The notes: generated by a model from the sequence alone, not told the origin. Shown: positions 15,278 to 63,415, counted from the first letter of the stretch. The stretch is 64,000 bases of DNA from Tubulanus polymorphus (GCF_964204645.1 NC_134034.1:8444962-8508961), one strand, 5' to 3'. Made by a program: numbers and translations.

Positions 15278-15278
<1 letters not shown>

Positions 15279-42380: not shown

Positions 42381-42626
42381 AGTAATAGGGATAATGGGCT
42401 TTTTAGCTTGAAAGCCCATTATCCCTATTACTCTTAAAATATTCACATAAATGAATAACATTTAAATCATTGAACTTCTAAAATCAATTTTAATAAAAAA
42501 TATAGTATTAAAATGGAAGCAAATAAGTACTACTGCCCAACATGTAAGATAAGTATAGATAAATCCCAAAAAGCAAGACACAATAAAACTAAAACACATT
42601 TAGAGAATAAATTGAAACTAGAGTAT
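42381..42626 (+). repeat. Left TIR of copy B with a collapsed 52-bp hairpin (42381-42432)
   Basis: Reverse complement of 60278-60739 apart from the deleted hairpin centre. Confidence 0.92.
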
Positions 42627-45600
42627 AAAGATGATATATTAGAAACTAAATTAGATGAATTAAAGAATGAAAAAGAAACATACAAATGTGATACATGTAA
42701 TCAATCATTCAGTGATAAAAGATATTATAAAGAACATTTAAAATCTATAAGTCATATTAGAAATAAGAATAATGATATTTTAGGTGAAGATTATTTTGAT
42801 AATGATAACGATAAGAAACAGAAGACAATTAAAAGAATAAAAAATAAATTAAACAATAAAAGACCATACATGGAAGATGTAAGAAATTATATTAATTCAT
42901 TAGATAATAAAAAAGATATAGAGATAACCGAAGCATTTAAAAGTGATATTGGTCCAGCAGCTATCGAGTTTAAATTTCATAAAGGTAAAACAATAGAAGA
43001 AAATAAAAAACATTTAGAAAATATGAAAGAAATAATAAAAATAATTACAAACGTAGAATATCCAAAAATTAGTATATCAGTTAAAGTAAAAATAAAATCT
43101 GAAGATAAACCAATATATAATATAAATTCTCATTCACAACATATTATATCTAAACAACATATAGATGATAAATTAAATAAATGTTATAATGAAATAAAAA
43201 CTAAAATAGAAGAGAAATATTTTGAAGGATCTGGTTTAATATTTGATGAGATAATATTTATAACTTTACATGTTTATAACACAAAATATAATAAGTTAAC
43301 TAAATCAAAACCAATTGATGAAAATAATTTATCATATTATAAAGAACCAGATATTGAAGCATCAAGTTATATTAAACTACCATTTAAAACTAATGCTGTA
43401 ATAAATGTACAAAATGAAGATGATAAATGTTTTCTATGGACAATTATAAGTTGCTTACACCCAGTTGAAGATTATAAACAACATAGTTTTAGATTAACTC
43501 ATTATAAACAATTTGAAAATAATTATAAGATAGATAAGTATCCTGTTAGAATTAAAAATATTCCAAAAATAGAAAGAGATAATAATCTAAAAATAAATGT
43601 ATTTGATTTAATCAAATTACCAAATACAAAAGGAAATAATATTAAACATTATACATTAGAACCTTTATACCTATCAAAAGATTATGATTCAAATGATGTT
43701 ATAGATATACTATATTATGAGAATCATTATATGTGGATTAAACAAATAGATTTATTTTTTAGAACAGAAAATGATCACCATAAAATATATCTTTGTAGAA
43801 AATGTTTACATAGATTCAGTAATGAAAGTACATTATTAAATCATAAACAACTATGTGATAATCATGATTATTGTAAATTAGTTTTACCAAATGAAAAAGA
43901 TAAAATATTAGAATTCAAAAAATATGATTACAAAAATAAAGTACCATTTGTAATATATGGAGATTTTGAATCATTAAATAAAGAACTAACTGATCAAGAT
44001 AGAAAAGATATATATTATAAAAGAAAGAAATTAAATTCTAATGAAAATGATATAATTGATTATTCAGATCCTATAATAACAAATACTATTAAAAAGATCT
44101 ATCAAAGTGCTGCAGCTTTCGGGTTATATATTAAATCTAATTATCCAGAACTAATTGAAAGTGAATATTATAATTACAGAAATGAAAATGTTATCAATCA
44201 TTTTTGTGACTTATTAATTGAATATGAAATAAGATTTAGTAAATTATTGAATACAAATAAAGAAATACTTATGACAGAAGAAGATAAAGAAGAATTTGAG
44301 TTTGCAGATAAATGTTATTATTGTGAAAAGATATTTAATTATAAAGATAAAAAAGTAAGAGACCATGATCATTTGAATGGAAAGTTTAGAGGCGCTGCAC
44401 ATGAGAATTGTAACTTACAAGCTAAGAAAATTAACTTTGTACCAGTTATATTTCATAATCTATCAGGATATGATGCGCATTTATTCATCAAACAGTTATG
44501 TCATAAAATAGAAGAAATCAATAATGAAATAGAAATATTAAATTCAAATAGATCAAAAGATAAAATACCAACTTATAAATTTAGAATGTTAGCTAAAACA
44601 TCTGAGAATTATATATCATTCCAATTTGGTTGTCTAAGATTTATAGATTCATATAGATTTTTAAATAGTTCATTAGATAACTTATCAAAATCATTAGTTG
44701 ATGATGAATTAAAGATATTAAAAGAATATTACCCAAATAATGATGATTCTAAATTAATGAGATATAAAGGAGCGATTCCATATTCTTTCTATAAAAATCA
44801 TAATGATTTTAACATAACTGAATTATTAAAAGAACAATTCTATGACGAATTAAAAAATGAATATGTTAAAGATGAAGTCTATAATAGAACATTGAATATT
44901 TGGAATCATTTCAAAATAGAAAATCATGGGCAATTAGTAGATTTATATTTAAAATCAGATGTATTATTATTAACCGATATATTCGAAAGGTTTAGAGATG
45001 TAAACCTAAAATATTTCAATATTGATCCTTGTCATTGTTATTCATCACCAGGATTAACATGGGATTGTGGATTAAAATTTACAGATATAAAAATGGATTT
45101 GTTAACAAATATAGATCAATTACTATTATTTGAAAAATCTATAAGAGGAGGTGTTTCAGGTGTATTGGGTGATAGATATTTCAATGTAAATGATAATCCT
45201 GGATATAAATTATTATACATAGATGCAAATAATCTTTATGGTTGGGCAATGATGGAACCACAACCTTATGGGATGTTTGAAATAACTGAAGTTTTACAAC
45301 GTGAAAATAATGATGAATTTGATTGGAAGAAAAGAATTCTAGATATTGCAGATGATTCAGATATTGGTTACTTCTTTGTTGTAGACTTGGAATATCCTGA
45401 AAATATTAAATTCAAATCTAGAAATCTAGCTTACTGTCCCGAACATAAAACTGTAACTCATGAAGAATTATCAAATTACCAAAAAAGAATTAAACCCGAA
45501 AATCATATTCATACAGAAAAGTTAATGGTAACTCAAGAAGATAAATATAATTATGTAGTACATTATAGAATGTTGAAGTTTCATTTGAATCAAGGAATGG

Positions 45601-46555
45601 TATTAAAAAAAGTACATAGATATATTTCATTTAGTCAATCGAAGTGGTTAGAAAAATATATAGATTTTAACACCAAACAGAGAACTGAAGCTAAAACTGA
45701 TTTTGAGAAAGATTTCTTCAAGTTAATGAATAATGCATTCTATGGTAAGACTTGTGAAAATATTAGAAATAGAAATGATATTGAGTTAGTTAGTAATGGT
45801 AAAAGGATAAGGCATTTACAATCATATCCTAAGTTTATAGGTAACAGAATATTTGATGAAAATTTAGCTGCAGTTAAGATGAGAAGAACTTCAATGAAAT
45901 TTAATAAACCGATTTATGTTGGAGCTGCAGTTTTAGAATTATCAAAATTACTAATGTATAAATTTTACTATAATATACTACAACCCATCTTGGAGAAAAG
46001 AATATAGAAATCTTATATTTTGATACAGATTCTTACATATTAAAGATAAAAACTGATAACATAACAGATGATTTAAAAACATTAAAACATCATTTTGATT
46101 TCAGTAACTATCCTAAAAATCATGAATTGTTTAGCAATGATAATAAAAAAGTTCCTGGGAAGTTTAAGGATGAATTAGGTGGTGAAGAAATGATAGAGTT
46201 CATTGGTATTAGATCTAAAATGTGTTCATATAAAACCAAAACTCATGAAGCTAAAAAGTTAAAAGGAATTACCAAAAGCGTTGTTGAAAAGAATATTCAT
46301 TTTAAAGATTACATCAATTGTATATTTAATGAAGAAGTTAGAAAACATAAGATGAAATGTTTAAGATCTGAAGATCATGAAATGTATATTGAAGAGATAG
46401 AGAAGATAAGTTTGAATCCATTTGATGATAAAAGATATATTTTAGATGATGGAATTCATACAGTCGCCTATGGTTGCAATTTAGATGAATATATAAAATT
46501 CAAAAGAGAAGAAACAAAAGAAAATGAGATTATGAAAAGGATTCTAACGTGTTAA
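42513..46555 (+). pseudogene. pPolB: Protein-primed DNA polymerase B with N-terminal C2H2 fingers and an endonuclease VII-like insert; single frameshift near 45985
   Basis: 1164-aa ORF with Exo motifs YGDFES, FHNLSGYD and YLKSDV; CYYC..RDHDH..GKFRGAAH..CNL; motif A YIDANNLYG; motif B KLMNNAFYGK. Motif C YFDTDS lies in the next frame (~46015), continuing to 46555. Confidence 0.95.
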
Positions 46556-46583
46556 TCAATTTCAATAAAAATTTGTATAATAA

Positions 46584-46925
46584 ATGGAGAGTAAACAAGT
46601 ACACAGTGAATTCTTAGATAGAATTAAAGATACTTCAAGCGTCAAATCTGTAGATTATAAATTTAAAAAACTAACTGAGTTAACAATTCACAAGAAATAT
46701 TTAATTACTAACATTGAAACAATTACTAATAAATATGGAGATAAATTAGTAATTCATTTAGAATATGAAGGATTAAAAGGAAATACATATAAATTCAGAA
46801 CATATTTACCAGATAGATTTCATCGATTATCAAGTGAAGATCTAGAAGAATTATGTTCTGGAGATTTCTATTTCGTATACAAAGGTAAGAATGAAAAAGG
46901 GCACCATGAAATAGATTTCGAATAA
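46584..46925 (+). CDS. MESKQV protein, possible OB-fold ssDNA-binding protein
   Basis: Present in three copies; FKKL.EL...Y.I...NKYG...YLP.RF beta-rich pattern; adjacent to pPolB; function inferred. Confidence 0.75.
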   Translation: MESKQVHSEFLDRIKDTSSVKSVDYKFKKLTELTIHKKYLITNIETITNKYGDKLVIHLEYEGLKGNTYKFRTYLPDRFHRLSSEDLEELCSGDFYFVYKGKNEKGHHEIDFE

Positions 46926-46942
46926 GAAAATATGTAAAATAA

Positions 46943-47698
46943 ATGGTAGAATTAAAAGAATACAGAATATTTGTAGATTCTAGAAGGCTTACAAATTATA
47001 AATCACATAATTTACTAGTACAATTAGATAGAGAATTTAAGAATTGTGTAGATTTAAAATTAGTTAATATAAGTTTATGTAATTCTTTTTATAATATATC
47101 GGATAAAACTTTTGAACATAGAGGGTGTATGATTTATATGAGAAATAAAGATAAATGGTTTCATATATTTTTTAAACCAGGATTATATAATTTAGAATCA
47201 TTAGCGCAGGAAATTAATAGAAGAGCTCGGTTGAAAATCGGGGGCACTTCTGTATTTGAAATTAAATTTAATAAAATTGATAGTACTAATAAAATAAGAA
47301 TAAAGATATCTAATGAACAACATAAATTTATGGTAAACAAACCACTGGCTAAAATGTTAGGAATTAAACCGCTTACAGTTACTGGAAACGCAGAAGGCAG
47401 CTCAAATATAATACCTTTTACACACTTTTATATTTATTGCAATTTAATCGAGCCTACAAAAACTTTCGAAGCAACTAAAGAAACAATTTGTAGTTCTAGT
47501 ATACTAAATATTTTACCGCTAAAAAATGTTAAACAATTTGGAACTCAAATAAATTATTATTTAACAGAATGTGATTTTAAACCATGCATTCCTAAATTTA
47601 ATAATTTTAAATTAGAAATAAGAAATCATAATGGATACTTAATTGATTTAAATAACTTTCCTGTGATATATGAATTAGTTATAAGATGTAAAGAGTAA
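46943..47698 (+). CDS. mCP: Minor capsid (penton) protein, single jelly roll
   Basis: IFVDSR..., SFYNIS, PGLYN, FYIYCNLIEP, EIRNHNGYLIDLNN pattern typical of Polinton/virophage pentons. Confidence 0.8.
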   Translation: MVELKEYRIFVDSRRLTNYKSHNLLVQLDREFKNCVDLKLVNISLCNSFYNISDKTFEHRGCMIYMRNKDKWFHIFFKPGLYNLESLAQEINRRARLKIGGTSVFEIKFNKIDSTNKIRIKISNEQHKFMVNKPLAKMLGIKPLTVTGNAEGSSNIIPFTHFYIYCNLIEPTKTFEATKETICSSSILNILPLKNVKQFGTQINYYLTECDFKPCIPKFNNFKLEIRNHNGYLIDLNNFPVIYELVIRCKE

Positions 47699-47714
47699 TT
47701 TTTTCACTATATAA

Positions 47715-48068
47715 ATGAATATAACTGTCGGACCGAGTATATGTTTTGGATTTGATTTTAAACGTGAGAAAGAAATGAAATTTAACGTTAATGATGTAAT
47801 TACACATATTAAAAATATTGCATTTTCTAATGAAACAACATTTGAGTATGAAACAACAATTGATAAAGAAACTTTTAATGTAGAAAAGATTACTAATTTA
47901 ATTAGAGAATCTTTAAGATTTTATGAATTAGATGAAGATTTTATCATCGATGATATTAAAAAAATAATAATTGAAATATATGATAATCATAAAACTAGTA
48001 ATGAAATAAATGTTGAATTAATCATAAATAAGTTAACTAAATATTTTGAAGATAGTAATTTTTTTTGA
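47715..48068 (+). CDS. Hypothetical protein
   Basis: TAAATG start; homolog in copy A. Confidence 0.75.
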   Translation: MNITVGPSICFGFDFKREKEMKFNVNDVITHIKNIAFSNETTFEYETTIDKETFNVEKITNLIRESLRFYELDEDFIIDDIKKIIIEIYDNHKTSNEINVELIINKLTKYFEDSNFF

Positions 48069-48075
48069 TAAATAA

Positions 48076-48297
48076 ATGAGTGATAATAAGTGGATAATAA
48101 CTGGATTATATAATGGCGCATTACTATCAGTTGGAACTGTTGGTTATTCAATGGTATTAAAAAAAGTATTTAAAATGGGAAGTGTTAATGTTGATAGATT
48201 TGATATAAATGATATTTTAAAATTAACATTAGCAGTTACTTTATCTAATTTAACTATTGATTATTTAGAAAAACAAAAATATATTCCTCCCATATAA
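48076..48297 (+). CDS. Small hydrophobic protein
   Basis: TAAATG start; conserved in A; two hydrophobic segments. Confidence 0.8.
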   Translation: MSDNKWIITGLYNGALLSVGTVGYSMVLKKVFKMGSVNVDRFDINDILKLTLAVTLSNLTIDYLEKQKYIPPI

Positions 48298-48322
48298 ATG
48301 CATAATTTTTTTTGTTAAATAA

Positions 48323-48745
48323 ATGGCTTCTGCAATTATAACTATTATAGGATCGGCAATTGTTAACGCTTTAGCATTTACTGGTGGTGGTTATTTATTT
48401 AAACATATTGATAAAAATAGTTCATTAGGAGAACAAAGAAGACATAACTTAGCGTTAGAGAAATACAATAAAGCTGCAGAAGAATATAGAGAAAAGAGGC
48501 AAAACTATATGGATTACATCAATAAAGAATTATATGATCAGAAGATTTCACATAGAGATTTTCAATCAGTTGATGATGCAATGAGTTTATATAACACAGT
48601 AACAAATAAAGAAAAATTACATCTATACAAACCTAAATTATCAGATTATTATACCCCAAGTAAAGAACAACAGAAATATGAAATAATATGGATTTTAGGT
48701 GGAACTGTTATTGTTATATTTGTTGCTTATAAGTTTACTAATTAG
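48323..48745 (+). CDS. Conserved protein with Gly/Ala-rich hydrophobic N-terminus, coiled coil and C-terminal TM
   Basis: Intact in A and B. Confidence 0.85.
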   Translation: MASAIITIIGSAIVNALAFTGGGYLFKHIDKNSSLGEQRRHNLALEKYNKAAEEYREKRQNYMDYINKELYDQKISHRDFQSVDDAMSLYNTVTNKEKLHLYKPKLSDYYTPSKEQQKYEIIWILGGTVIVIFVAYKFTN

Positions 48746-48764
48746 TAATTTTTTTTCTAAATAA

Positions 48765-49199
48765 ATGGAAGTAAAAGTTGATAATATTGATATTATTCCT
48801 CATGATATAAATAAAACTAAATTAAAAACATATTTAGAAAAACAAATATTAGAATTTGAAAGTGACTTAAAGATAAAAAAGAAAAAATATTTAAAAAGTA
48901 AAATTATATATTATTTGATTATAAGTGGTTCGGTTACAATTAGTTCTGTAATAACATTTCTAGCAATATTCAGTCCATTAACACCTTTAGCTATATCAAT
49001 TGGTGTATTAGGATTAAGTTCAAGTGTTTTAACAGGTATAAGTTCAAAATTAAATATAAAAAGTAATAAAGAAAAAATTAAAACTAATATAAAAGAAATT
49101 AATAAATTAAAGAATACACTAGATTATATAATAAGTTTAAATGGTCATATAACAGTTGAAGAACAAGATAAATTATTAAAAGAATTAATAAATTATTAA
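48765..49199 (+). CDS. Two-TM membrane protein
   Basis: IIYYLIISGSVTISSVITFLAIF and LAISIGVLGLSSSVL helices. Confidence 0.82.
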   Translation: MEVKVDNIDIIPHDINKTKLKTYLEKQILEFESDLKIKKKKYLKSKIIYYLIISGSVTISSVITFLAIFSPLTPLAISIGVLGLSSSVLTGISSKLNIKSNKEKIKTNIKEINKLKNTLDYIISLNGHITVEEQDKLLKELINY

Positions 49200-49215
49200 T
49201 TTTTTAATTATATAA

Positions 49216-50517
49216 ATGGGGTTTCCAAAAGCTTTCCAATATAATAAATCAATTAAATATAATATTCCGGCAATAGATTTTAAGAAAAATATTACATATA
49301 AAAATATAGTTTTAAATTCATTAACTAATTTAGAAATTTATGTTAATGAATCACAGTTTTTTATTTCTAAAATGGAAAATATATTTAATACATATGAAGT
49401 TACTTTTACTCGAGATGAATATCATATATATAAAGTAAAATCTAATATGAAATATTGGCAGAATCAATTAAATTTTGCTGTTTATTGTGCAACAACAGGT
49501 TGTGGAATTAGTTGGAATGATCATTTAAATAACTTAGATAAAAATTTGAAGTATTCTGATTTAAAATTAATTCACACAATATTTAGATTTCACACATATT
49601 TTCAAATCAGAATAATATTAAATGAATTAGAATGTCCTTTACCCGGGTCTAAATATTTTAAAGAATTAGATAATAATATCAATATATCCAAGTTTTATAA
49701 AATATGTAATGAATTTAATATAAATATTAATTCCGATTTTAGAGCGCATGGTAAATTGCAAGGTGTTGTTGAAGAGTATGAAATAAAAAGAATTGATTAT
49801 ATGCATAGAATTTCAGCTTATCATAATTATAAAATTGATAATAATAATGGTTGGGTTAATTTCATTTTAGAAAATGGTGAAGGTTTTACAAAATCAGGTA
49901 TACAAAGAATAAATCAATCTATTAGAATTTATTTGATATGTATTTTAGGCGCTCAAGTTGAAACAAGATCCCCAATAATTGGAAATGATAACACTTCATT
50001 CGATGCGCAGAAACAGTTTAAAGTTTTATTTGAAGATTCCATACATGATGATAAAAATAGATAGATTCCAGAAAACATTATAAGATATCAAAATTATTTA
50101 GATAAATCACATATTAGATTAAATTATTGTATAGGCCCTAATCTATTAATTATTTCTAATGATTTAGTATTAAAGATGGGAAATATAATTGGTTATAATA
50201 ATCTAATTAAAACTGCAACAATAAATAATTCATTTGGATTAAATGATATAAATAAAAAGATTATTACTGCTCCAAAATTAATGGAAGGTGAAAAAAATAA
50301 AAAACACATTCAATCAACAGAAACTAAAACTAAGAATATTAAATTGGATAATGATTCTAAAATAAAAGATTACAATACATCAGAAAATAATAGAACTGAT
50401 AATATTCAACATGATATAATTAAACTAAATGATGATAATAAATCCCATGAAAATACTAAATTAGCTATAACTTGTATAGGAATTGTAATCGGAGGAATAT
50501 TATATTTTAAATTTTAA
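49216..50517 (+). pseudogene. Conserved ~430-aa Polinton protein with C-terminal TM; one in-frame TAG at 50062
   Basis: The 282-aa and 113-aa ORFs are in the same frame; copy A has TCG (Ser) at the stop position. Confidence 0.85.
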
Positions 50518-50533
50518 TTTTTTTATTATATAA

Positions 50534-51995
50534 ATGGATGAAGAAATTCCATTGGATGCTTTTGGTGACGCCCCTGGTATAAGTGATGAACCACAACCTG
50601 ATTTTAATGAAACTAATATTGATAATGATGATGAATCAGCATATAATTCTAATTTAGCAGATAGTGGTTCTAAAGCCCCATCAACAGATGAATTTGATAG
50701 AAGAACTAGATCGAGAATAAATCCTGAAAATGAAAATCAAGGTTTATCAAGACAAAATTTAGAAAATATTGGATTTATATATAAGTTTCAACATGTATTT
50801 AAAGATTCTGGATATAATATAAATAATAGAGGCGCCAGACTTTTAGTACAAGATTTAAAGTTTTTAGATGGTGAATATTATTATCGTGTGAAAGAAAAAT
50901 CGGATTATTATATTAATATCTCTAATAAAAATCAAGACAAAATAGTAGCAAAATCAACTTTGCTTAAGTCTGACTCATTACTATCTAGAATTAAAAGAAT
51001 AAGTAATAGTAATGAAATAAAAGATGTAACACAAGAAGAAATTATTAAAAATAGAAAATTATTTAAACAAAGAATTAATGAATTATTTGAAACAATCAAA
51101 GATAATCCAGAAACAGAAACAACTTCTGAACAGAATATAACTTCCAAAACTAGTAAACTTAAATCAAACACTGAAGTTCAAACTGAAAAACTTTTACCGA
51201 ATGGATTACTTGATGCAACAGATCAAGAAATAGAAGCTTTAAGTATGTTTTCTAAAAAAACAATTAGAGAAATAATAAGTATACGAAATGATGCCGATAA
51301 AATTGCTCGCGAAAAACATATTAGATATAATAAAATTAAACCTTTAGAAAATAAATTATTTGACACCAGAAAAGAAATAGAACAATTAAAATTAGATAGA
51401 GAATTTAAAGTTATTGAAGAAATTGAATTTAAAAAAAGAAATGCATATTTAGAAAAAGAAATTGATGATTTAGAATATAACATAGAATTTCAGAAAGAAA
51501 AAATGAAATTATTATTAAAATCATATGATTATTGTATTAATAGATTAAAAGTTGTTGTTAAAGAGTTAATACTAAAACCAAATTCTGACATATCACTAAA
51601 AGATAGAATAAAATTATTATTTAAGTTTGAAGGAATAACAGTTCTTTCAATTCTAACTAGCTGTAACTATGTTATTTACAACAATTGGTTTAGCAATATC
51701 AAATTCACTGAAATCTACTCCTATTCCTACTCCCAATAAACCAGATAAACCTCCAGGTAATAATTCTATACAAGATAAAGTTAAGGATGGTTTAAAGAAA
51801 TTAGCAAAATATTTATGGGAACTATCAAAGAAATCTGCTGCAGCATTGCCAGGAGTTATTGCATCAATTGTTGGTTTTATATTGAAATCTGCTGGGAATA
51901 TTCTTAACTTTGCTGCTGAACATATTATTTTATTTTTAATTACAGTTGTAAGTGCTATTATTTTTGGTTTAGTTAATATGATTAAAAATAAATAA
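50534..51995 (+). pseudogene. Acidic/coiled-coil protein with C-terminal TM helices; 1-nt insertion near 51657
   Basis: CTAACTAGCTGT versus CTAACAGCTGT in copy A joins the 401-aa and 108-aa ORFs. Confidence 0.82.
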
Positions 51996-52015
51996 TTAAT
52001 TTTTTTGTTAAATAA

Positions 52016-53263
52016 ATGAGTGGGAGTTATATAAGTCCTTCGAAGAATCATAGAATATCTAATGCTATTAAAGCAGAAAGATCACATCATATAATTACTC
52101 ATAACCCTTCAAATATTAATCCCGATGAAACTTTATATGTTAGAATTCCTAGATTAACACAAAATACTTTTTATGTTCCAAATAGTATTTATTTATCAGC
52201 TGATATAAAAGTAATCGGTAATAATAATAATTATGTTGTTGATAATGTTGGAAGATATTTGATTAAAAAGTTAACAATAAAGATTGGTCCGGAAACGGTT
52301 TTCTCATTAGATGATTATAATTTATTTATGCATTATAAAGATTTATGGTTAACTAAAGAAAATAGAAATAATATGATATTTCAGGGTATTCAATCAGAAA
52401 ACCAAAATAAATTAAGATCAGAAGCTAATAGCGCAATATTAACTAATGATGTAGATAAATTGATAAAAAGTATATATGGAAACAAATATAAAATTCCATT
52501 AGACTTTGAATTGATAAATAATAATGCACCTTTATATAAATACGCAATTCAAGAAGATATTATATTTGAGATAACATTTGCTCCTGTAAATGAAATTGTA
52601 TTATCTAGCGTTGTTAAAGATATGAGTTATAAATTATCGAATATATGTTTAGAATATGATACAGTAACTGATGAAAATATTTCAAGTATAATTCAAACTC
52701 AATACAATCAAGGATTTTCATTATTATATGATTATATTGATAAATTTAAAACTGTAACTATTAATGCAAATGATGAAATAATTAATGAGAATATTAACTT
52801 CCCTAGAAGATCTATTAAAGGTATATTAATATTTTTTACCATTGGAACGTATACTAATGGCGCAATAAATGTTGATAATTATTATAATCCAGAAATAACA
52901 AAAGTAGAAATAACTATCGAAGGAATAGCGAATAAAATATTCTGTCAAGGAATGAGAATGATTGATCAATGGGTAGAAATTAAAAAACATTTTATGAATG
53001 AAAAAGTGAAATCATCTGAAAATTGTAACATTAATCAAATTGATTATTATACCGGTAATAAATATGCATTATGGTTAGATTTTAGAACAACTGAATATAA
53101 TTCATTACATGGTTCTGGAAAAAAACTACAGAACACTAAAGATGGAATACAATTATTCATGACAAAGAATAAAGGAATCAAAAATTTTAAAATGCACATT
53201 TATATTATATCTGACGCGCAATTAAATATTGTAAATTCACAATTAGATAGTGTTATGTATTAA
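52016..53263 (+). CDS. MCP: Major capsid protein (probable double jelly roll)
   Basis: 415 aa, beta-rich; ITHNPS..P.ETLYVRIP, LSNICLEYD, INFPRRSIKGIL, YYNPEITKVEITIEG; size, position and high A/B conservation. Confidence 0.78.
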   Translation: MSGSYISPSKNHRISNAIKAERSHHIITHNPSNINPDETLYVRIPRLTQNTFYVPNSIYLSADIKVIGNNNNYVVDNVGRYLIKKLTIKIGPETVFSLDDYNLFMHYKDLWLTKENRNNMIFQGIQSENQNKLRSEANSAILTNDVDKLIKSIYGNKYKIPLDFELINNNAPLYKYAIQEDIIFEITFAPVNEIVLSSVVKDMSYKLSNICLEYDTVTDENISSIIQTQYNQGFSLLYDYIDKFKTVTINANDEIINENINFPRRSIKGILIFFTIGTYTNGAINVDNYYNPEITKVEITIEGIANKIFCQGMRMIDQWVEIKKHFMNEKVKSSENCNINQIDYYTGNKYALWLDFRTTEYNSLHGSGKKLQNTKDGIQLFMTKNKGIKNFKMHIYIISDAQLNIVNSQLDSVMY

Positions 53264-53295
53264 AATTTTAACTTTAATAAAAAATCTTATATTAA

Positions 53296-54534
53296 ATGGA
53301 AGGTGGAATATATGAAATACAAACTTCAAGTGAAATGATATCAGATATATATTATATATTACCTTATGATGAATACAGTAAGTATTTTGGAGATTACTTT
53401 AATCAATTCAAATATAGAATAAGTAAAATAGATAAGAATATTGAAACAAAAATAGAAGATAATATTGAACCTAAAATAGAAGATAAGAATGAAACTAAAA
53501 TAGAAGATAAGAATGATATTGAATATAAAATAGAAGATGATATTGAACCTAAAATAGAAGATAAGAATGATATTGAATATAAAATAGAAGATAAGAATGA
53601 TATTGAATATAAAATAGAAGATGTAACAGGATATGTATCTTATAATATACCCTCTACAACATATGATATTGAATCAAAAAAGACAAATGAAAAATATTGT
53701 GACGTATGTAAACAGTATAAAAGTTATAAGAATTGGGCAACTCATCTTAATTCACTCAAGCATAAGAAAAATAAGAATAAGATTTTAAATGAATTGAATA
53801 ATGATAGTGAAATTGATAATGATAATGTTAAAGAAGATAAATATTGTGAAGAATGTGATAAATATATAAGTCGTAGTAATTTTTCAAAGCATAAATTAAC
53901 ACAGATACATTTGGATAATATAGAAAGAAATATATGTGAAAAGTGTAATGTTGTTGTATTACCTAAAGATAGAATTAAACATGATAATTCTTTTGAACAT
54001 ACAATAAAAGCTGCTGATTTAAATATCCTTTATAGAGCACCAAGTGCATTTTTTGATATCGAAAATAATGATCATAGGAAATTATATAGATCAATTTTTA
54101 TCGATTATGTAAGAAATAATCCAAAACAAGTATTATCAGATCTAAAAACTCGTCGGACGATTATAAAAATTTATCTAAATAATTATTGGAGTATACATTA
54201 TTTCATAAAATTTAAAAATATAGATTTTTTAACAGAATTGAAAAAAGTTGCTGCTAATGATAATATAAGTGATAACTTTGATGAAATAATTCAATACTAA
54301 AGTTATGAAGATTTTTCACAGGATGTTATAAATAAAATAAGAAATGAAGCAAAAAATGAATATAAAAATATAAGTGAAGACAAATTAAACCAATATATTT
54401 ATTTAACTTATGAATTCTGGGTTAAGGGTTTGAATAGTAATGGTTATCATTTTAAACTGTTAGGTGAAAGAAGATCGCAAGAATTAAGAGATGCATGGAG
54501 CAAATTGTTTTCAGAATTAGAATCAGAAAAGTAA
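53296..54534 (+). pseudogene. Zinc-finger protein with KIEDKNDIEY repeats; TAA at 54298 followed by 77 more in-frame codons
   Basis: CDVC..H..H, CEEC..H..H and CEKC..H..H; the frame stays open to TAA at 54532-54534. Confidence 0.72.
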
Positions 54535-54554
54535 TTTAAAATATTAATATAATA

Positions 54555-55172
54555 CCCTTTGTGTCTTTATTGTCTTTAGTAGGTTTAGTACTTTTAGTAC
54601 ATAAAGAATAAATCTTTATTTTATAAGTAGTGAATAAAATTATTTTTAAAACTACTAAACTACTAAAGACAATAAAGACATAAATATATATATAACACTG
54701 TTTCAATAATTATATTTATTCATCTGATGGATTTTATATATTACTGTTTCAATAATTAAATCTATTTATCACACATATTTATTATATATATCATAGATTT
54801 ATCATTTATAAAAATTATTTATATATTTTATTTTTCTAAGTACTAATTAAATAAAGATTTATTCTTTATGTACTAAAAGTACTAAAAGTACTAAAGATAA
54901 TAAAGACATAACAAACACATATAGATGTAATAAATATCATAAATTTATTTATCTTACAGATTTATTATATATATTTGATTCAGTAATGATAAATCTATGT
55001 GTGTTTGTTGTGTCTTTATTATCTTTAGTAGTTTAGTAGTTCTATTTTATTTTATTCACTACTAATAAAATAAAGATTTATTCTTTATGTACTAAAAGTA
55101 CTAAACTACTAAAGATAATAAAGACATTAGGGGAGGTATATAATACATATCTAATACATATCTAATACATAG
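54555..55172. repeat. Central nested inverted repeats at the convergence point of copy B
   Basis: TGTCTTTATT.TCTTTAGTAG.TTTAGTAC arms at ~54562 and 55011; inverse arms at ~54651, 54851 and 55068; TAATACATATC repeats next to the ATPase stop. Confidence 0.85.
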
Positions 55173-55184
55173 GTATACAAATAG

Positions 55185-55799
55185 TTATTTTATAAATTTA
55201 TATTCATATGGAAATTGTAATCTCATAAGTAATTTGGAACCTTTATCATTCTTTAATTTATTCATATATTCATCATGTAATTCAGTAGGTATAATTTGAT
55301 TTTCTTCTAATGATTGTTGCATAGATTTTCTATCTTTGTTGTAGAATAAAACTAGAAATCTTATATTCTCTCTAAAGTCTTTCACAATTGAATTATATTT
55401 CTGATTTAAAACCCATGTTGTTATCCCAAAATGTCTACCAGAGAAAGCTAAATAACATAACTCACTTTCTCTAATTTTAGAATCATGTAAATTTGCGCAA
55501 TCATCAATAATAAATAATGTTTTAGATCCTTTATAAATATCTAATGCAATTTTTATACAATTATCTAAATTATCTTTTACTGTTTTAGAATTTAATATAA
55601 TAAACTTTTTATCTTTAAAAACTATATCTCTATTATACGTTTCATTCATTTCATAAGTTGGGCAGAATAATATTATATTATCGAAATGATTTTTATAAAT
55701 AGTTTCTAATAAATCTAATATGAAGTGTGTTTTACCACAATTTGTAACTCCAGTTATTAACATATTATGTGGTTCAAATATAAACAAATCTTTATTCAT
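55185..55799 (-). CDS. A32/FtsK-like genome packaging ATPase
   Basis: GVTNCGKT Walker A, LFIIDD Walker B, SGRH arginine finger, LNQ and FREN motifs. Confidence 0.92.
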   Translation of the reverse strand: MNKDLFIFEPHNMLITGVTNCGKTHFILDLLETIYKNHFDNIILFCPTYEMNETYNRDIVFKDKKFIILNSKTVKDNLDNCIKIALDIYKGSKTLFIIDDCANLHDSKIRESELCYLAFSGRHFGITTWVLNQKYNSIVKDFRENIRFLVLFYNKDRKSMQQSLEENQIIPTELHDEYMNKLKNDKGSKLLMRLQFPYEYKFIK

Positions 55800-56877
55800 T
55801 TATTCTTTTAATTTTACTAGATAAAATCCATTCATTAAATTTATCATCATATCCTTTATATTTCACCAAAGAATATTTCTTACCGCGTAATGTTTTTGTT
55901 TTCAATACTTTTTCTATTTTGTATTCTATTTCATCTGGATTTGGTACTAATGATAATTCTTGTTCATAAAAATAACCTAATATTTCTTCATCTTTTAAAT
56001 CAAACAATTTATAAACAAATGGTTTAGTTAATATTATCTTTTTAATTTTAAATATTTCTTCTGTAAAATTAGGGGTATAACCTTTATAAAATGTTTTTCG
56101 ATATTTAGAAATTCTAACATGTTGTCCTATTTTAAATTTAGGTTCTCCAAAATCATGTGTAACAAATGCTCCATATAAATTATTCCAAACTATTTCTGAA
56201 TTTTCTTCTTTTCTAGCTTGTATAGGTTTCATATTTATAGAACTATGTTTAGAATTATTATAACCTTTCACTAAATCATCTAACACATCGATATATTTAT
56301 ATGTTTCATTAGCGGTGAAATATTTCCACATTCTAGTTTTCAATGTTTTATTAAATCTTTCTATAACAGATGCTTTTTTATCTGAATGTGTTGAAAAATA
56401 TTCTACATCGTTATCAATTAATAGTTTTTTGAAATGTTTGTTATAAAATTCTTTACCTTCATCAAATTGTATTTTATCTCGGATAGCTTCTTTAAATATT
56501 AATTTGAAAGAATTTGTAACTTCTATACCAGTTTAATTTTTAATCGGGATACTCCATGCGTATCTACTGAATATATCTATAACATTTAGTATCCAAAAAT
56601 ATCCTTTGTTATATTCTTCTAAGTTTTTCATATCAATTAAATCAGCTTGCCATTGTTGGTCAATATATGAAACCATTACTTTTCTTGTTAAATATTTTTT
56701 ATCCATCTTTTTATGAATTTGATATGTGGGTTGATTTTGTAACCATGATTTTAATTCACTATATTTCATATTGCTATTATCAGATTTAATTTTATTCCAT
56801 AATTCCGAAACACTTGAATATGACACTTCACTTTCTGGGTTGTAATATAACGCTCTTAAATATTGTTCTTTTTTCAT
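55792..56877 (-). pseudogene. INT: rve integrase with chromodomain; single frameshift near 56535
   Basis: DDE motifs QADLID, FDEGKEF and IERFN; C-terminal chromodomain. Confidence 0.93.
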
Positions 56878-56883
56878 CTTATT

Positions 56884-57270
56884 TTAATCCATTAATAATA
56901 TTTTAGATTTATTTTCATTTGATTTATGATTTGACTTATTTTCTGGTATGATAGGTTTATTGTCATTGGAATCATCTTTATCATCAGATTTGAATTTATG
57001 TTTATATATTACACCGGATAATATAATAACTGTTACTAATCCAATTGTAATATATAATTTATAATTACTTCCAGCATTAGAAGAATTAGATGGATTATTA
57101 TTTGAATCAATACCACCGTGTGGGTGCTGTACGGCACCATCAGGTGATTCATTTATATCAGTTAATTTCTTTTTCTTAGCTTTTTTTAATTCTGATGATC
57201 TTTTACCTAATTCTCTTGCCCATTTAATTTGTTTCTCTGATCTAGCCTTTTTCTTAACTCCATCACTCAT
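56884..57270 (-). CDS. Small basic TM protein
   Basis: Homologs in A and C. Confidence 0.8.
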   Translation of the reverse strand: MSDGVKKKARSEKQIKWARELGKRSSELKKAKKKKLTDINESPDGAVQHPHGGIDSNNNPSNSSNAGSNYKLYITIGLVTVIILSGVIYKHKFKSDDKDDSNDNKPIIPENKSNHKSNENKSKILLMD

Positions 57271-57865
57271 TTATTTTAGTTAATTTTTGTTCTGATTCAT
57301 TTTCTGTTTCACTGTTTGGTTGTAGTACATCTGTTTCGTTCTTACCTGATTTATATTCCATAGGTTTGATGTTCGAAAATGTAATGACACCAGTAGAAAT
57401 TAATGTCATAACCGATCCTAATTGAAATGAAGCATATCCAACCCATTTTTGTAATTCAGTCATAACTAAATAGTCATTTTTCAAATCATTATATAATTTA
57501 TTTTCATCATCAATTGGTATTAACTGGTTACATAACTTAGAATAACATTTTACAATACCATCTGAAATAGAATCATTTATTCTAGCTAATCGAGCTTCTT
57601 CATAAATCTTAAAATATTTTATTACTTTTTCTTTATTCATATTATCTAATTCTTGAAAAGTTATTGTTTTACCAATAAACTCTTTAGTTTTTCCACTCGC
57701 AATCAATAGTTCTAGATGATGCTTACAATATAAATAGTATTCATAATCTATATTGTTATTAACTTGAATAGAATTAGAAACAACTGTATCTTTATTATCA
57801 CTAATACCTAAATCATCTAATGTCTTTTCAATATCAATACTATTCTTATTAGATTTCTTTGACAT
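57263..57865 (-). CDS. Conserved Polinton hypothetical protein
   Basis: 200 aa, intact in B and C. Confidence 0.85.
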   Translation of the reverse strand: MSKKSNKNSIDIEKTLDDLGISDNKDTVVSNSIQVNNNIDYEYYLYCKHHLELLIASGKTKEFIGKTITFQELDNMNKEKVIKYFKIYEEARLARINDSISDGIVKCYSKLCNQLIPIDDENKLYNDLKNDYLVMTELQKWVGYASFQLGSVMTLISTGVITFSNIKPMEYKSGKNETDVLQPNSETENESEQKLTKINE

Positions 57866-58140
57866 TTATATTAGAGAAAAAAAGCAAAAAGAATATTATA
57901 AGTATTCTTCAAATGATACTAGTATCTCTTTAGGTTAATACTAAATTGACTAGGTTAGTTAAAGTTAAAGAATTTCTATTCAAATCTATTCAAAATCTAT
58001 TCAATCTAATGTCAATTAGAATTACCAAAAGAAAATATTAAAAATATAACAGAATTCACTAGCTAGTTGAAGTTATTGTTTTTTTATTATATTTTATTTA
58101 AATTAGGATTTAGATTATCTCACTACTATTGTCTATCTAT

Positions 58141-59260
58141 TAGGAGCAGTAATTATAACTGTCCAGATAAGTCATTTCGGATCCTCGATAATAAATCCTT
58201 AACTGAAAATAAATTCAAAGAAACGACTGGTGGAATTACTATTTCATAAACACATATATTTATTATGTAAATTTTAGCGATCGATAATAGAACAATGGAG
58301 AACAATAGAAATGCGGTCCAATCGGACCGGTTATTGCGCAATACACAGTTATATTTTTATTCTGTAAACTACAACATTCACACATAGAAATGTAAACAAT
58401 ACAATACAGAACAACCGCCGCCATTAACATCGATCAATAATAGAACAATGGAGAACAATAGAAATGCGGTTCAATAGGACCGGTTATTGCGCAATACACA
58501 GTTAACAGTAAACAATATAATATTAAAACAGATATATACAATCGAGATTACATTTTTGATATCTATATTACAAAGACCTTCAGTGTTATAATTTATAATT
58601 TTGTCCAGAATTCTTTAATTACTGGATTGTTTCCAATCATTTCTTCAATTTCTAGTAAATATCTGACTACTTCACTAAATGCTAATCCTAATATTTTGAA
58701 TTTTTCATATTTTATTAATCTACCTACTCTTCTCAGTTTTCTTTCAAAACCGGCACTGATATCTCCACTCATTTTCTTAGTTTTCGATTATTTGAGTCCC
58801 AACAGCAATTTAAGTCGCGTTGCTGGTAATTTTGGTAATTGTAGTTCGCGCGGTAATTGTTTATTATGTATTACATCACTCAGAATTTTCACCATTTCTT
58901 GATGATAGTCCAAATGTTCTTATAATTTTGTGAAGTTTGTTCGTCAATTACGAGTTTCATCCTCCATTTCTATTGATTCCTGAGTTTCACTATCCAGTAG
59001 CATCGTTCCTCATCCGTTGGTTGGCTTAGAATTTCTGGTTGATCTCTGTATTCCATTTTAATCTAAAAGATGTCGTGAAAATGAATTACTGTACTTAAAT
59101 ATGTTTAAAGGTTTCCCTACTTCATAATATATGTACTTACATTTAGATCTAGAACTGTAAACTGTGTTTTGAGAGAGAATATCCAATACGTACTATGTAT
59201 GTGAAAGTTGATTTCTAACTGCCGACGTGGCGCACGTTCGACCAAACTAATTACTTCTGC
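58141..59260. other. Copy-B-specific ~1.1-kb insertion downstream of HNH
   Basis: Flanks CACT.CTATTGT and ACAGATGTTC are near-contiguous in copy C (~62163-62200); absent from A; contains a ~70-bp direct repeat (58279-58351, 58432-58504). Confidence 0.7.
58593..59056 (-). pseudogene. Decayed cargo gene of unknown function
   Basis: TAAAATGGAA start; MEYRDQPEILSQPTDEERCYW... then, after stops and a frameshift, ...FERKLRRVGRLIKYEKFKILGLAFSEVVRYLLEIEEMIGNNPVIKEFWTKL*. Confidence 0.55.
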
Positions 59261-59394
59261 ACAGATGTTCTTTATGATGAAGTTAATTAATTCTTTAGAA
59301 TTGAAAAAAAGATATATTTGGCAACATATGTTTTAGTAGTAAGCAAAAGCTATGTATTATATACATACAAAGCTCAAATAGAATTGCCAGCTTT

Positions 59395-60060
59395 CTAACC
59401 ACTGATCAAAACCTCAGAATGCGGTTGATTCTGTGAAATACTATTCCATAATTCAACAAATGTCTTTGCTTTATCCAGTTGATCTAAATATAACTGTAAA
59501 TCTAGTTTATTGGATTTAATTATGTTTTCCTTCTTTTCTAAAGGTCTTAGATTCTTCCAATTCCAAATAAGTTTTTTATTGTATTCATCATTCATGTCAA
59601 ATTTAGAAATCGGCAACACATGATCAATATGAAAGTATTCACCATAATTATCTATATTCATTTTATCGTCGAATTGATATATTATCCATGATTTTAAGAA
59701 TTCATGTGAACAACCCAATAAATTAGATAGTGTTTTTGAATGCGTTTCTTTGTTGAATAATTGTGTTAATCTAGACCGTAAACATTGTTTCAATCTAAAA
59801 TTAAGATCTGTTTGATATCTTTCTCTCATATATTCTGCCATATAATAATTATAATGTTCTATATTATATTCTCGGTATTGTTTGGTGTATAGTTTAAAAC
59901 AAGTTTTACAGCAATATTGAAAACCATCTTTGCTAATCTTACGCTTACTAAATTCTGTTAATGATTTATCTAATTCACATTTAGAACACTTCTTGTAGTA
60001 TATGTTTATAACGCCAGTGTTATTTGTAATATTGATAATTTGTGGTTGTTCTGGTTCCAT
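59395..60060 (-). CDS. HNH-type endonuclease with zinc finger
   Basis: HIDHVLPIS..WKNLRPLEKKEN..KSNK; intact. Confidence 0.82.
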   Translation of the reverse strand: MEPEQPQIINITNNTGVINIYYKKCSKCELDKSLTEFSKRKISKDGFQYCCKTCFKLYTKQYREYNIEHYNYYMAEYMRERYQTDLNFRLKQCLRSRLTQLFNKETHSKTLSNLLGCSHEFLKSWIIYQFDDKMNIDNYGEYFHIDHVLPISKFDMNDEYNKKLIWNWKNLRPLEKKENIIKSNKLDLQLYLDQLDKAKTFVELWNSISQNQPHSEVLISG

Positions 60061-60139
60061 TTATTATACGTATTTTTTTACTAAATTGGTTAATAATTTT
60101 AGAATCCTCTTCCATTTCTTCGACCAACGTCATCCTTTT

Positions 60140-60391
60140 TCATTCCTCGCTGCTTTTGATAAGTTGTTTCGATTCCTTGATATCAAATTCCTCAACGTAT
60201 TGTTCATTATTTGGATCATTATTCCATAATTCAATAAATTTCTTTCCCTTTGTTAACTGTTCTGAATATAACTGTAAATATTCTAGTTTCAATTTATTCT
60301 CTAAATGTGTTTTAGTTTTATTGTGTCTTGCTTTTTGGGATTTATCTATACTTATCTTACATGTTGGGCAGTAGTATTTATTTGCTTCCAT
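60140..60391 (-). CDS. Chimeric mini-ORF: pPolB first zinc finger fused to an HNH-like C-terminal tail
   Basis: First 38 aa identical to pPolB of B; LQLYSEQLTKGKKFIELWNNDPNNEQYVE matches the HNH C-terminus of A. Confidence 0.6.
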   Translation of the reverse strand: MEANKYYCPTCKISIDKSQKARHNKTKTHLENKLKLEYLQLYSEQLTKGKKFIELWNNDPNNEQYVEEFDIKESKQLIKSSEE

Positions 60392-60739
60392 TTTAATACT
60401 ATATTTTTTATTAAAATTGATTTTAGAAGTTCAATGATTTAAATGTTATTCATTTATGTGAATATTTTAAGAGTAATAGGGATAATGGGCTTTCAAGCTA
60501 AAGGTTGAACGTGCGGGTGAGTAAAAATGAAAAAACATAAAAATAATTACAATTTCTACTTGAATTAGGAGTGAAACTCATAAAATGAAAAATTAATTCG
60601 AGCGTGTGAAAATTAATTTTTCATTTTTATGAGTTTTGCGAGTAATTCAAGTAGAAATTGTAATTATTTTTATGTTTTTTCATTTTTTACGAGCTCGACC
60701 GTTCGACCTTTGGCTTGAAAGCCCATTATCCCTATTACT
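60278..60739 (-). repeat. Right TIR of copy B, including a 268-bp terminal palindrome (60472-60739)
   Basis: AGTAATAGGGATAATGGGCTTTCAAG...CTTGAAAGCCCATTATCCCTATTACT. Confidence 0.93.
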
Positions 60740-60884
60740 GCTATTTATTCATTTATTTACTACAGGATAGTAACACGCTCGAAATTTCTATCAAACATTT
60801 TCTTTCATAAAACACGATCATGCATCTTTTTGCGGCCCTGCAACGAAAGTCGTATATATGCCTTTCGAACTTACGTATCGACAT

Positions 60885-60908: not shown

Positions 60909-61329
60909 AGTTAGATCTGTAAAAACAGTTCATTTTCCTTACAGTTCGAGGCTTTAACTAAGCCTCGTCATCAGAGGAACAACAAACAATATCTTCATGT
61001 TGAAACCGGCCATATATTCAATTACAATCAAAGCGAGTTAATATATATCCATGCAATGATCTTAAAAAAAATCACACACAACAGAAAATCCCAATGCTGT
61101 GAATCTCTACGCTTAGATTGATATCAGTTAATTGCAGACACATAATGTGGTGGCGATTTGATGGTGTTTTGAATAGGGAAGAGTGCGGTTTTAAGGAGGA
61201 GGACATCATAATTTTGAGGAATTCAAGATTTTTAAACATTAAAAGTGTAAGTAAAGTGCGATTGAAATAATACATGATATAAATCATTGAACTTCTAAAA
61301 TCAATTTAGTAAAAAAATATGTATAATAA

Positions 61330-61983
61330 ATGGAATCAGAACAACCACAAACTATCAATATTACAAATAACACTGGCGTCATAAATATATACTACAAGAA
61401 GTGTTCTAAATGTGAATTAGATAAATTAGCTTTAACAGAATTTAGTAAGCGTAAGATTAGCAAAGATGGTTTTCAATATTGCTGTAAAACTTGTACTAAA
61501 CTATATACCAAACAATATCGAGAAGATAATAGAGAAGCTTACAATGATTATATGACAGAATATATGAGAGAAAGATATCAAACAGATCTTAATTTTAGAT
61601 TGAAACAATGCTTAAGATCTAGATTAACACAATTATTCAACAAAGAAACGCATTCAGAAACACTATCTAATTTATTGGGTTGTTCAGGTGAATTTTTCAT
61701 ATCATGGATAATATATCAATTCGACGATAAAATGAATATAGATAATTATGGTGAATACTTTCATATTGATCACGTGTTGCCGATTTCTAAATTTGACATG
61801 AATGATGAATACAATAAAAAATTTATTTGGAATTGGAAGAATTTAAGACCTTTAGAAAAGAAGGAAAATATAATTAAATCTAACAAACTAGATATGAAAT
61901 TATATTTAGATCAACTGGATAAAGCAAAGACATTTGTTGAATTATGGAATTCAACACATAATGAAAAATACGTTGAAGCTTAA
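61330..61983 (+). CDS. HNH-type endonuclease with zinc finger
   Basis: Intact homolog of 4469-5137 and 59395-60060. Confidence 0.82.
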   Translation: MESEQPQTINITNNTGVINIYYKKCSKCELDKLALTEFSKRKISKDGFQYCCKTCTKLYTKQYREDNREAYNDYMTEYMRERYQTDLNFRLKQCLRSRLTQLFNKETHSETLSNLLGCSGEFFISWIIYQFDDKMNIDNYGEYFHIDHVLPISKFDMNDEYNKKFIWNWKNLRPLEKKENIIKSNKLDMKLYLDQLDKAKTFVELWNSTHNEKYVEA

Positions 61984-62445
61984 ACGCTTAGAAAACCGGT
62001 TACTCTCGATCTATGTCAAACCGCCTATATGTAATTGTATTAGGTTGTTTACAAAAACATCTGTGCCGTCTTTCATATTCAGTTGAATGGGGCGCAGCTC
62101 ATTTGAATATTGATCGAATGTGCTATTTCAGTTGAAAAGGATTAATCAATTACATCACAAAGGAACATCTGTTACAATCCAATAAACAATAGCAGTGAGA
62201 TATCAAATAGAATTTAAATAAAATATAATAAAAAAACAATAACTTCAACTAGCTAGTGAATTCTATTATATTTTTAATATTTTCTTTTCAAGAAGAGAAT
62301 ACTTTATATTTTGAATAGATTCAAATAGAAATTCTTTAAATTCAAATAGCTAGTATCAGTAGTCAATACTAGAATCCTTTAGCTTTAACTAGCTAGTATC
62401 ATTTGAAGAATACTTATATTTTTTTGCTTTTTTTCTCTAATATAA

Positions 62446-63048
62446 ATGTCAAAGAAATCTAATAAGAATAGTATTGATATTGAAAAAACATTAGATGATT
62501 TGGGTATAAGTGATAATAAAGATACAGTTGTAACTAGTTGTGCTCGAGTTAATTGTAATATAGATTATGAATACTATTTATATTGCAAGCATCATCTAGA
62601 ACTATTGATTGCCGGTGGAAAAACTAACGAGTTTTTAAATGGAATTATTACTTTTCAAGAATTAGACTCTATGAAACCAGATAAAGTAATAAAATATTTT
62701 AAGATTTATGAAGAAGCTAGATTAGCTAGAATAAATGATTCTATTTCAGATGGTATTGGCAAATGTTATTCTAAGTTATGTAACCGGTTAATACCAATTG
62801 ATGATGAAAATAAATTATATAGTGATTCGAAAAATGACTACTTAGTTATGACTGAATTACAAAAATGGGTTGGATATGCTTCATTTCAATTAGGATCGGT
62901 TATGACATTAATTTCTACCGGTGTCATAACATTTTCGAACATCAAACCTATGGAATATAAATCAGGTAAGAACGAAACAGATGTACTACAACCAAACGTC
63001 GAAACAGAAAATGAATCAGAACAAAAATTAACTAAAATAAATGAGTGA
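62446..63048 (+). CDS. Conserved Polinton hypothetical protein
   Basis: Homolog of 57263-57865. Confidence 0.85.
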   Translation: MSKKSNKNSIDIEKTLDDLGISDNKDTVVTSCARVNCNIDYEYYLYCKHHLELLIAGGKTNEFLNGIITFQELDSMKPDKVIKYFKIYEEARLARINDSISDGIGKCYSKLCNRLIPIDDENKLYSDSKNDYLVMTELQKWVGYASFQLGSVMTLISTGVITFSNIKPMEYKSGKNETDVLQPNVETENESEQKLTKINE

Positions 63049-63409
63049 TAGCGTTAAGAAAAAGGATTGATCTGAAAAACAAATTAAATGGGCAAGAGAA
63101 TTAGGTGAAAGATCTTCAGAATTAAAAAAAGCTAAGAAAAAGAAATTAACTGATATAAATGAATCACAGACTTTATCTGATATTGATTCAAATAACAATC
63201 CATCTGATTCTTCTAATGCTGGAAGTAATTATAAATTATATATTACAATTGGATTAGTAACAGTTATTATATTATCCGGTGTAATATATAAATCAAAATT
63301 CAAATCTGATGATAAAGATGATTCCAATGACAATAAACCTATCATACCAGAAAATAAATCAAATCATAAAGCCATTGAAACTAAATCTAAATTATTATTA
63401 ATGGATTAA
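63041..63409 (+). pseudogene. Small basic TM protein with premature TGA at 63068
   Basis: Homolog of 56884-57270. Confidence 0.8.
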
Positions 63410-63415
63410 AAGAAG

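Follow-up and report, generated by a model that had tools for sequence, protein, structure and literature searches.

Poxvirus-type start signals in an integrated Polinton-type virus of Tubulanus polymorphus

Are the Polintons of multicellular hosts autonomous nuclear viruses, or are they satellites of large cytoplasmic viruses? The question is raised by a stretch of the Tubulanus polymorphus genome (the window: 64,000 nucleotides, GCF_964204645.1 NC_134034.1:8444962-8508961, with positions counted from its first letter) which holds a whole element, copy B, beside a degenerate copy A and a partial copy C. The original prediction, made from the DNA alone, was that the structural genes of this element carry promoters like the late promoters of poxviruses, and that it is an endogenous virophage of a pox-like virus. 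The element is an integrated Polinton-type virus, and we judge it probable (at roughly 0.6) that an RNA polymerase of poxvirus type, acting in trans, would transcribe its free form.

The predicted start signals are present as claimed: all nine named starts (47715, 48076, 48323, 48765, 49216, 50534 and 52016 on the plus strand, 57865 on the minus strand, and 62446 on the plus strand, which belongs to the partial copy C) have a run of six to eight Ts, a spacer of five to eight nucleotides and TAAATG, and three more (46943, 57270 and 55799) have TAAATG with no T-run. A T lies ten bases 5' of TAAAT at each of the nine, and the hallmark of poxvirus late promoters, TAAAT(G) over the ATG with a T at -10 in a T-rich tract, is found at 9 of 9; this match was judged against the published vaccinia description by counts versus controls rather than with a weight matrix. 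Among the 17 curated starts of the element, which exclude ATGs that open downstream pieces of broken genes, 14 have TAAATG, as against 42 of 700 other ATGs (6%, p=4.5e-15). Two more, that of the protein-primed DNA polymerase B (pPolB) and its duplicate in the terminal inverted repeat (TIR; 60391), read TAAAATG, and only the integrase start has neither. The form with six Ts (T6) occurs at 8 of the 17 starts and at none of the 700 other ATGs; a first-order Markov model predicts 0.4 per element, with a maximum of 3 in 200 resamples, and host DNA at 16.5-41 kb of the window contains no match. A further point for a poxvirus-type polymerase is that each strand retains its TAAATG where two head-to-head genes share 22 nt. 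The motif was also said to be kept in copy A despite divergent spacers. It is kept there, but most of the spacers hardly differ either, and with 85-94% likeness between the copies, copy A is weak evidence and adds little independent support; the real support for the motif comes from distant relatives.

Homologues of the major capsid protein (MCP) numbered 768 and 1,517 in two databases, and as relatives we took the best 80 of 244 confirmed metagenome loci together with all 7 genome loci (87). Starts were counted in the 15 largest families of open reading frames (ORFs), for members of at least 75% of median length or truncated by the contig and with at least 20 nt upstream; a few loci with short MCPs were placed in clades by identity. 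The motif is all-or-none by clade on the MCP tree: it stands at 45 of 52 starts in the clade to which the window belongs (15 loci, counting the window itself), at 31 of 32 in a second clade (11 loci) and at 3 of 3 in the single locus L079, versus 4 of 282 starts of the same gene families in the other 61 loci. The MCPs of the two motif clades are 32-77% identical to that of the window and their loci have 20-44% GC, and where GC overlaps the difference persists (40/41 in motif-clade loci of 33-44% GC, 0/42 in other loci of at most 39% GC). Position -3 is a T in 73 of 79 motif-clade starts, and a purine in 35/39 and 168/219 starts of other clades. The Kozak rule favours a purine at -3; a T there is hard to explain if it lies in the mRNA, and is expected if transcription starts on AAA with slippage, as is described for vaccinia and for yeast virus-like elements (VLEs), the latter with a TAAAN initiator and slippage leaders (PMC6211774). 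In the first clade the T-tract is densest at -9 (91%), in the second from -11 to -9 (81/72/69%), and a peak 9 to 11 bases 5' of TAAAT is that of vaccinia late promoters as described (PMC11980589). Likeness to poxvirus late promoters, as originally proposed, is thus borne out as a feature that is specific to clades, independent of GC and contrary to the Kozak rule at -3.

The idea that the motif marks structural genes stands as regards the motif itself, but not as regards its confinement to such genes. An A-tract replaces the T-tract before TAAA(A)TG at pPolB, at the ORF starting at 46584, at the predicted penton gene, at the variable-slot ORF starting at 53296 and at the HNH-like ORF; this class is kept at the penton in relative L001 and at the variable slot in L003 and L004. 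By the published description, a poxvirus late promoter has TAAAT+G lying over the start and a T at -10, whereas an intermediate one has TAAA, prefers A in the tract upstream and lacks the T at -10 (PMC11980589); the element's two classes share these traits with vaccinia: TAAAT(G) fused to the start codon with a T-rich tract about 10 nt upstream in the one case, TAAA with an A-preferring upstream tract in the other. The vaccinia G8R intermediate scaffold begins TAAAATG (PMC12917281), and the pPolB start, with TAAAATG and an upstream A-tract, resembles it; the G8R core lies at -26 to -13, whereas the A-tract of the element is nearer, about 9-17 nt 5' of TAAA.

We propose that the element would multiply as a satellite of a co-infecting poxvirus-like virus, whose polymerase would transcribe the free DNA in the cytoplasm. 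Promoters of the A-tract class would act like intermediate ones, with pPolB, small DNA-handling ORFs and the penton expressed first, and T-tract promoters would act like late ones, serving several predicted membrane proteins as well as the MCP. With its first nucleotides on AAA, the transcript would acquire a poly(A) leader by slippage, and the unfavourable T at -3 would never reach the mRNA. The element's own pPolB would replicate it, its ATPase would package it and its integrase would insert it into chromosomes; its spread may be mostly by particles that co-infect with the helper. Poxvirus machinery is reported to express foreign DNA in trans in the cytosol (PMC13527445), and there are precedents for promoter matching in the endogenous mavirus-like elements (EMALEs; two preprints) and for Polinton-like viruses (PLVs) in entomopoxvirus occlusion bodies (PMC11296320). 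The core genes are without introns, as had been noted, their ORFs being colinear with those of intact relatives. Two features of the element speak for such a helper. One is that AATAAA is not avoided, with 68 occurrences along 13.3 kb of coding strand free of introns. The other is that no RNA polymerase was recognised, in keeping with the prediction: protease, RNA polymerase and transcription-factor families found no match among 21 ORFs (Pfam) or 17 (NCBIfam), nor among the accessory ORFs of copy A and the relatives, several small ORFs being without assignment.

Several observations weigh against this reading. The integrase start of this copy lacks TAAATG, and the class of tract before a given gene family varies among relatives, which leaves an intermediate-to-late cascade as a suggestion only. 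Neither the element nor its relatives with the motif yielded a gene that clearly came from a poxvirus. The MCP tree has two changes in promoter type, and independent events are few because loci within a clade are related; in addition, the clade lists were drawn after the motif had been seen. A single origin of the motif is weakly rejected on the MCP tree (p-AU 0.03; 30 rows chosen from 68 loci, with groups named once the tree had been seen), the ATPase tree does not settle between single and repeated origin, and one gain with later losses is possible. Three candidate signs of poxvirus-type transcription were discarded: T at -10 alone does not discriminate, being common in AT-rich motif-less clades (24/39); short head-to-head spacing is also seen in motif-less clades; and the early terminator T5NT, although depleted in the window's clade (25 versus 52 expected), is not specifically avoided, as T5N[ACG], T4 and A5 runs are equally depleted. 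Finally, nuclear reporter genes are reported not to be inducible by poxvirus infection (PMC13527445); therefore the promoters more likely act on a free cytoplasmic form than on the integrated copy, and reactivation from the genome would need an extra escape step.

That the element is a Polinton-type virus follows from its gene content and ends (Table 1): pPolB, RVE integrase, TIRs, AG...CT ends, a 6-bp target-site duplication, a double jelly-roll (DJR) MCP, a penton and a packaging ATPase are all present. Ends of this form and a 6-bp duplication are Polinton hallmarks. Whole-genome shotgun reads join 42374 to 60740 at an empty site with six shared letters, which sets the limits of the element; 274 reads cross this empty site, the insertion site itself being a high-depth repeat (42179-42380, and 60740 onward). 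The pPolB is 33-43% identical to proteins of L032 and L037 that match PF03175, and it has the catalytic motifs DANNLY, KLMNNAFYG and YFDTDS; the window ORF alone gave no PF03175 match. The integrase is 82-84% identical to intact relatives over its full length. The penton call rests on Atlas scores of 0.97-0.98, which include the Sputnik V18/19 cluster (family F8, in 21 loci), the PDB profile search being blank. The only Polinton hallmark missing is the maturation protease (Ulp1/adenain), for which no match was found, though a highly diverged one could escape Pfam and NCBIfam; such a protease is reported in nearly all Polintons (PMC4642659, PMC11161782). The name virophage is apt at most for how the element may work, and probably not for the class it belongs to. 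No virophage cysteine protease was matched in Pfam or NCBIfam. In a Foldseek search with the window MCP the mavirus and Sputnik MCPs ranked 46-50, behind capsids of nucleocytoplasmic large DNA viruses, a ranking by structural likeness.

Several conserved proteins of the element have hydrophobic segments and belong to no known family. Among them F5 (31 loci) has about 430 aa, a C-terminal anchor and an invariant C-x4-C-G, and is a candidate virion membrane protein; the predicted fold of the L001 protein (AF2 pLDDT 75) had no Foldseek match under E 0.001 and a VIA best Z of 3.9. F14 has a weak HNH match in relative L004. Copy B is broken in four genes, pPolB, the integrase, F5 (near 50.06 kb) and F2 (near 51.66 kb), and each of the three copies in the window is damaged or incomplete. 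Read depth over the element is mostly 290-960 at 88% likeness, as against about 10, at 92%, in the host bins where it is lowest, and about 2,000 reads leave its right end into unlike flanks; there must therefore be at least tens of copies. The zinc-finger ORF at 53296 is in some copies only, as its read depth is low.

Table 1. Features of the element and its copies in the window.
Feature	Position	Strand	Evidence or remark
Late-like promoter, T6, N7, TAAATG, of ORF 47715-48068	47699..47717	+	
Late-like promoter, T8, N6, of conserved 73-aa ORF 48076-48297 (F9)	48059..48078	+	
Late-like promoter, T8, N6, of conserved hydrophobic ORF 48323-48745 (F4)	48306..48325	+	
Late-like promoter, T8, N5, of predicted membrane ORF 48765-49199	48749..48767	+	
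Late-like promoter, T6, N7, of conserved tail-anchored protein F5 (49216-50517)	49200..49218	+	
Late-like promoter, T7, N6, of conserved protein F2 (50534-51995)	50518..50536	+	
Late-like promoter, T7, N6, TAAATG, of MCP	52000..52018	+	kept in L001-L010
Late-like promoter, T7, N8, of conserved ORF 57263-57865 (F3)	57863..57883	-	
Late-like promoter in partial copy C	62428-62448	+	
Whole element (copy B), 18,359 bp, ends 5'-AG...CT-3'	42381..60739	.	empty-site reads, sequence
Left target-site duplication GCTATT	42375..42380	+	
Right target-site duplication GCTATT	60740..60745	+	
Right TIR arm, 99% complementary to 42402-42626; duplicates pPolB promoter and 5' end	60278..60502	-	
Short left terminal palindrome (outer part only)	42381..42432	.	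DNA fold
Imperfect terminal palindrome, 268 nt, 90% paired, four AAAATGAAAA words	60472..60739	.	DNA fold
Non-coding imperfect palindrome where gene arms converge	54542..55145	.	
Copy A, degenerate, rearranged, 85-94% identical to copy B	1..15630	.	
Partial copy C, including promoter 62428-62448	61236..64000	+	
pPolB, broken near 46.0 kb, with Endonuclease VII-like domain; A-tract and TAAAATG	42513..46555	+	
113-aa ORF; A-tract and TAAATG	46584..46925	+	one relative (L001)
Predicted minor capsid protein (penton); A-tract and TAAATG	46943..47698	+	
Double jelly-roll MCP	52016..53263	+	AF2 pLDDT 84; Foldseek iridovirus/PBCV-1 capsids, E about 1e-17
Variable-slot zinc-finger ORF; A-tract and TAAATG	53296..54300	+	
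A32-like packaging ATPase; TAAATG without T-run	55185..55799	-	PF04665 E=6e-13
RVE integrase with chromodomain, interrupted	55792..56877	-	weak rve and chromo matches
128-aa ORF with hydrophobic segment; TAAATG	56884..57270	-	
Cys-rich/HNH-like ORF (F14); A-tract and TAAATG	59395..60060	-	

The terminal palindromes hold short words that resemble the poxvirus early core, which is described as A-rich sequence interrupted by TG (PMC11980589): four AAAATGAAAA words in the right end of copy B and two in copy A, the palindromes concerned being at 60472-60739, 15482-15630 and 41835-41880 and at 1-75 of L001, which opens with a similar AATGAAAAA..CATAAAAAT word. These words might serve as an early promoter, or else as an origin element. 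A tie between terminal palindromes and promoter type was considered and rejected, since they are also present in the motif-less L080 and L083-L085. AT-rich imperfect palindromes or repeats lie where the gene arms converge (54542-55145 and 7902-8551), and palindromes 3' of the ATPase also occur in L001, L003, L004, L013 and L014; a possible role is that of terminator or processing site. Rfam gave no match at 41-64 kb. An inverted fragment of element ends (41019-41876) adjoins copy B and holds the 5' end of pPolB, a copy of ORF 46584 and part of a terminal palindrome. The flank is gene-poor and repeat-rich with 30-44% GC, which suggests an animal; it has host minisatellites at 18105-33586 and 40802-41025 (periods 46, 53, 52, 23, 43 and 36 bp) and a high-copy non-coding mobile repeat of about 1.3 kb at 19170-20465.

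The close relative L001 has at 10340-10981 a gene for a deoxynucleoside kinase (PF01712, E=2e-31), which a TAAATG promoter of the T-tract class precedes; its 22 matches include no named viral donor. Homologues P0046, P0392 and L081-L087 are filed under bacterial or archaeal names of metagenome-assembled genomes (Bartonella sp., Anaerolineae and others), and are likely eukaryotic DNA that was misbinned. Scans of IMG/VR with MCP, F5 and ATPase alignments returned no relatives. In several motif-less clades (L013, L014, L016-L018, L022, L038, L039, L058 and L083-L085), TATA stands within 12 nt of the ATG, for example at 11/39, 6/11, 6/11 and 5/11 starts against a background unmatched for intergenic AT-richness; this recalls ASFV (African swine fever virus) late initiators, and as the TAAATG clade and one GC-rich group are also enriched we take it as a lead only.

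How far can the reading be carried, and what could replace it? Carried furthest, a widespread protease-less Polinton lineage would have repeatedly switched promoter 'dialect', with some clades endogenous virophage-like parasites of undiscovered poxvirus-type viruses, an intermediate-to-late cascade (possibly with early cores in the terminal hairpins) and chromosomal copies mobilised on infection as an inherited defence; we regard this whole picture as doubtful. The full model of the original prediction, which extends transcription in trans to otherwise silent integrated copies that the helper switches on and that serve as an inherited antiviral defence, has precedents in the Cafeteria EMALEs and the Tetraselmis PLVs and accords with the high copy number, but the state of the three window copies and the reported failure of poxvirus machinery to induce nuclear genes (PMC13527445) make it rather unlikely.

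A related polymerase that is not that of a poxvirus might also act in trans, from a virus like the Pokkesviricetes (egovirus-like or of another lineage) or from a helper like the cytoplasmic linear plasmids. The yeast VLE promoters already mentioned would suit it, as would the lack of any poxvirus gene link in the element, and the egoviruses, which have basal branches from marine sediments, indicate that poxvirus relatives remain to be found (preprint). We nevertheless think it improbable. The VLE upstream element ATNTGA is found within -40 to -15 at only 3/49 and 0/30 starts of the two motif clades, ASFV initiators differ (early TA+1NA, TATA at late starts, and templated 5' UTRs of median 9-14 nt, not fused to the ATG; PMC7163114, PMC5294985), and a fused TAAATG with a T-tract at -10 is the vaccinia late description.

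Alternatively, host RNA polymerase II could read compact nuclear promoters, maybe with an unrecognised factor of the element, and the likeness to poxviruses would be convergent. Passage through the nucleus is unavoidable for an element now inserted at many sites, host RNA data contain transcripts of coral polintoviruses (PMC11131425), and the several unassigned small ORFs leave room for such a factor. This too appears unlikely to us: an invariant T at -3 is a poor translation context unless the mRNA begins after it, the purine is retained in sister clades that share the core genes, a TATA box at -45 to -15 is found at only 3/49 and 1/30 starts, no TBP or TFIIB family was matched in the element and its relatives, and AATAAA falls about every 200 nt of coding strand.

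The notion that AT-bias, stop-start coupling, splice acceptors or upstream poly(A) signals create the pattern is largely refuted and very improbable, for although the element has about 24% GC, the T-run is often directly 3' of an upstream stop and AATAAA overlaps 19/49 starts in the window's clade (4/30 in the second), the motif follows clade rather than GC (above), its TAA doubles as the stop codon of the gene upstream in no more than 5 of 101 cases, a splice-acceptor AG in the last 15 nt (6/49 and 11/30) is rarer than in other clades, and head-to-head starts, with no gene ending upstream of them, carry the motif too.

If the element does depend on a poxvirus-type polymerase, it would point to poxvirus-like viruses in hosts without record of any, and the helper would be predictable from sequence; on the furthest reading, promoter type would be a readable tag for the unseen helper of a host. 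One family that splits by start signal also supplies matched positive and negative promoters. Parasites of poxviruses are so far represented only by three contigs from entomopoxvirus occlusion bodies.

Among known systems the nearest are the Polintons or Mavericks (adintoviruses, PMC8502044), which share pPolB, RVE integrase, A32 ATPase, DJR MCP, penton, TIRs and a size of about 18 kb; unlike them, the element has no detected protease, poxvirus-style starts, a long terminal palindrome, and conserved hydrophobic or membrane-anchored ORFs of no known family (F2, F4, F5 and F9). The adintovirus survey was seeded on the protease (PMC8502044) and may have missed this lineage. The yeast plasmids pGKL1/2 share AT-rich, linear DNA replicated by pPolB and a TAAAN initiator, and differ in the ATNTGA upstream element and an RNA polymerase of their own; they are not known to have a capsid or an integrase. 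Mavirus and the EMALEs of Cafeteria share pPolB and RVE integrase, chromosomal copies, a match to the late motif of the helper and clades that differ in promoter type, but they have protist hosts, a helper related to mimiviruses whose late motif is TCTA, a virophage-type capsid and a protease, and for them reactivation has been shown. The contigs AHEV_PLV1/2 and CBEV_PLV1 are, like the element, small DJR viruses proposed as poxvirus parasites, and are set apart by their description: about 12 kb, protease present, no RVE integrase, and found in occlusion bodies (PMC11296320). The words 'promoter' and 'motif' are absent from the main text of that paper, and 'promoter' from the coral polintovirus paper (PMC11131425); we found no paper reporting poxvirus-type promoters in a Polinton among those listed in a search of the open-access literature. 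Promoters matched to a helper and PLVs associated with poxviruses are thus already known, and it is poxvirus-type promoters in a Polinton that appear to be new.

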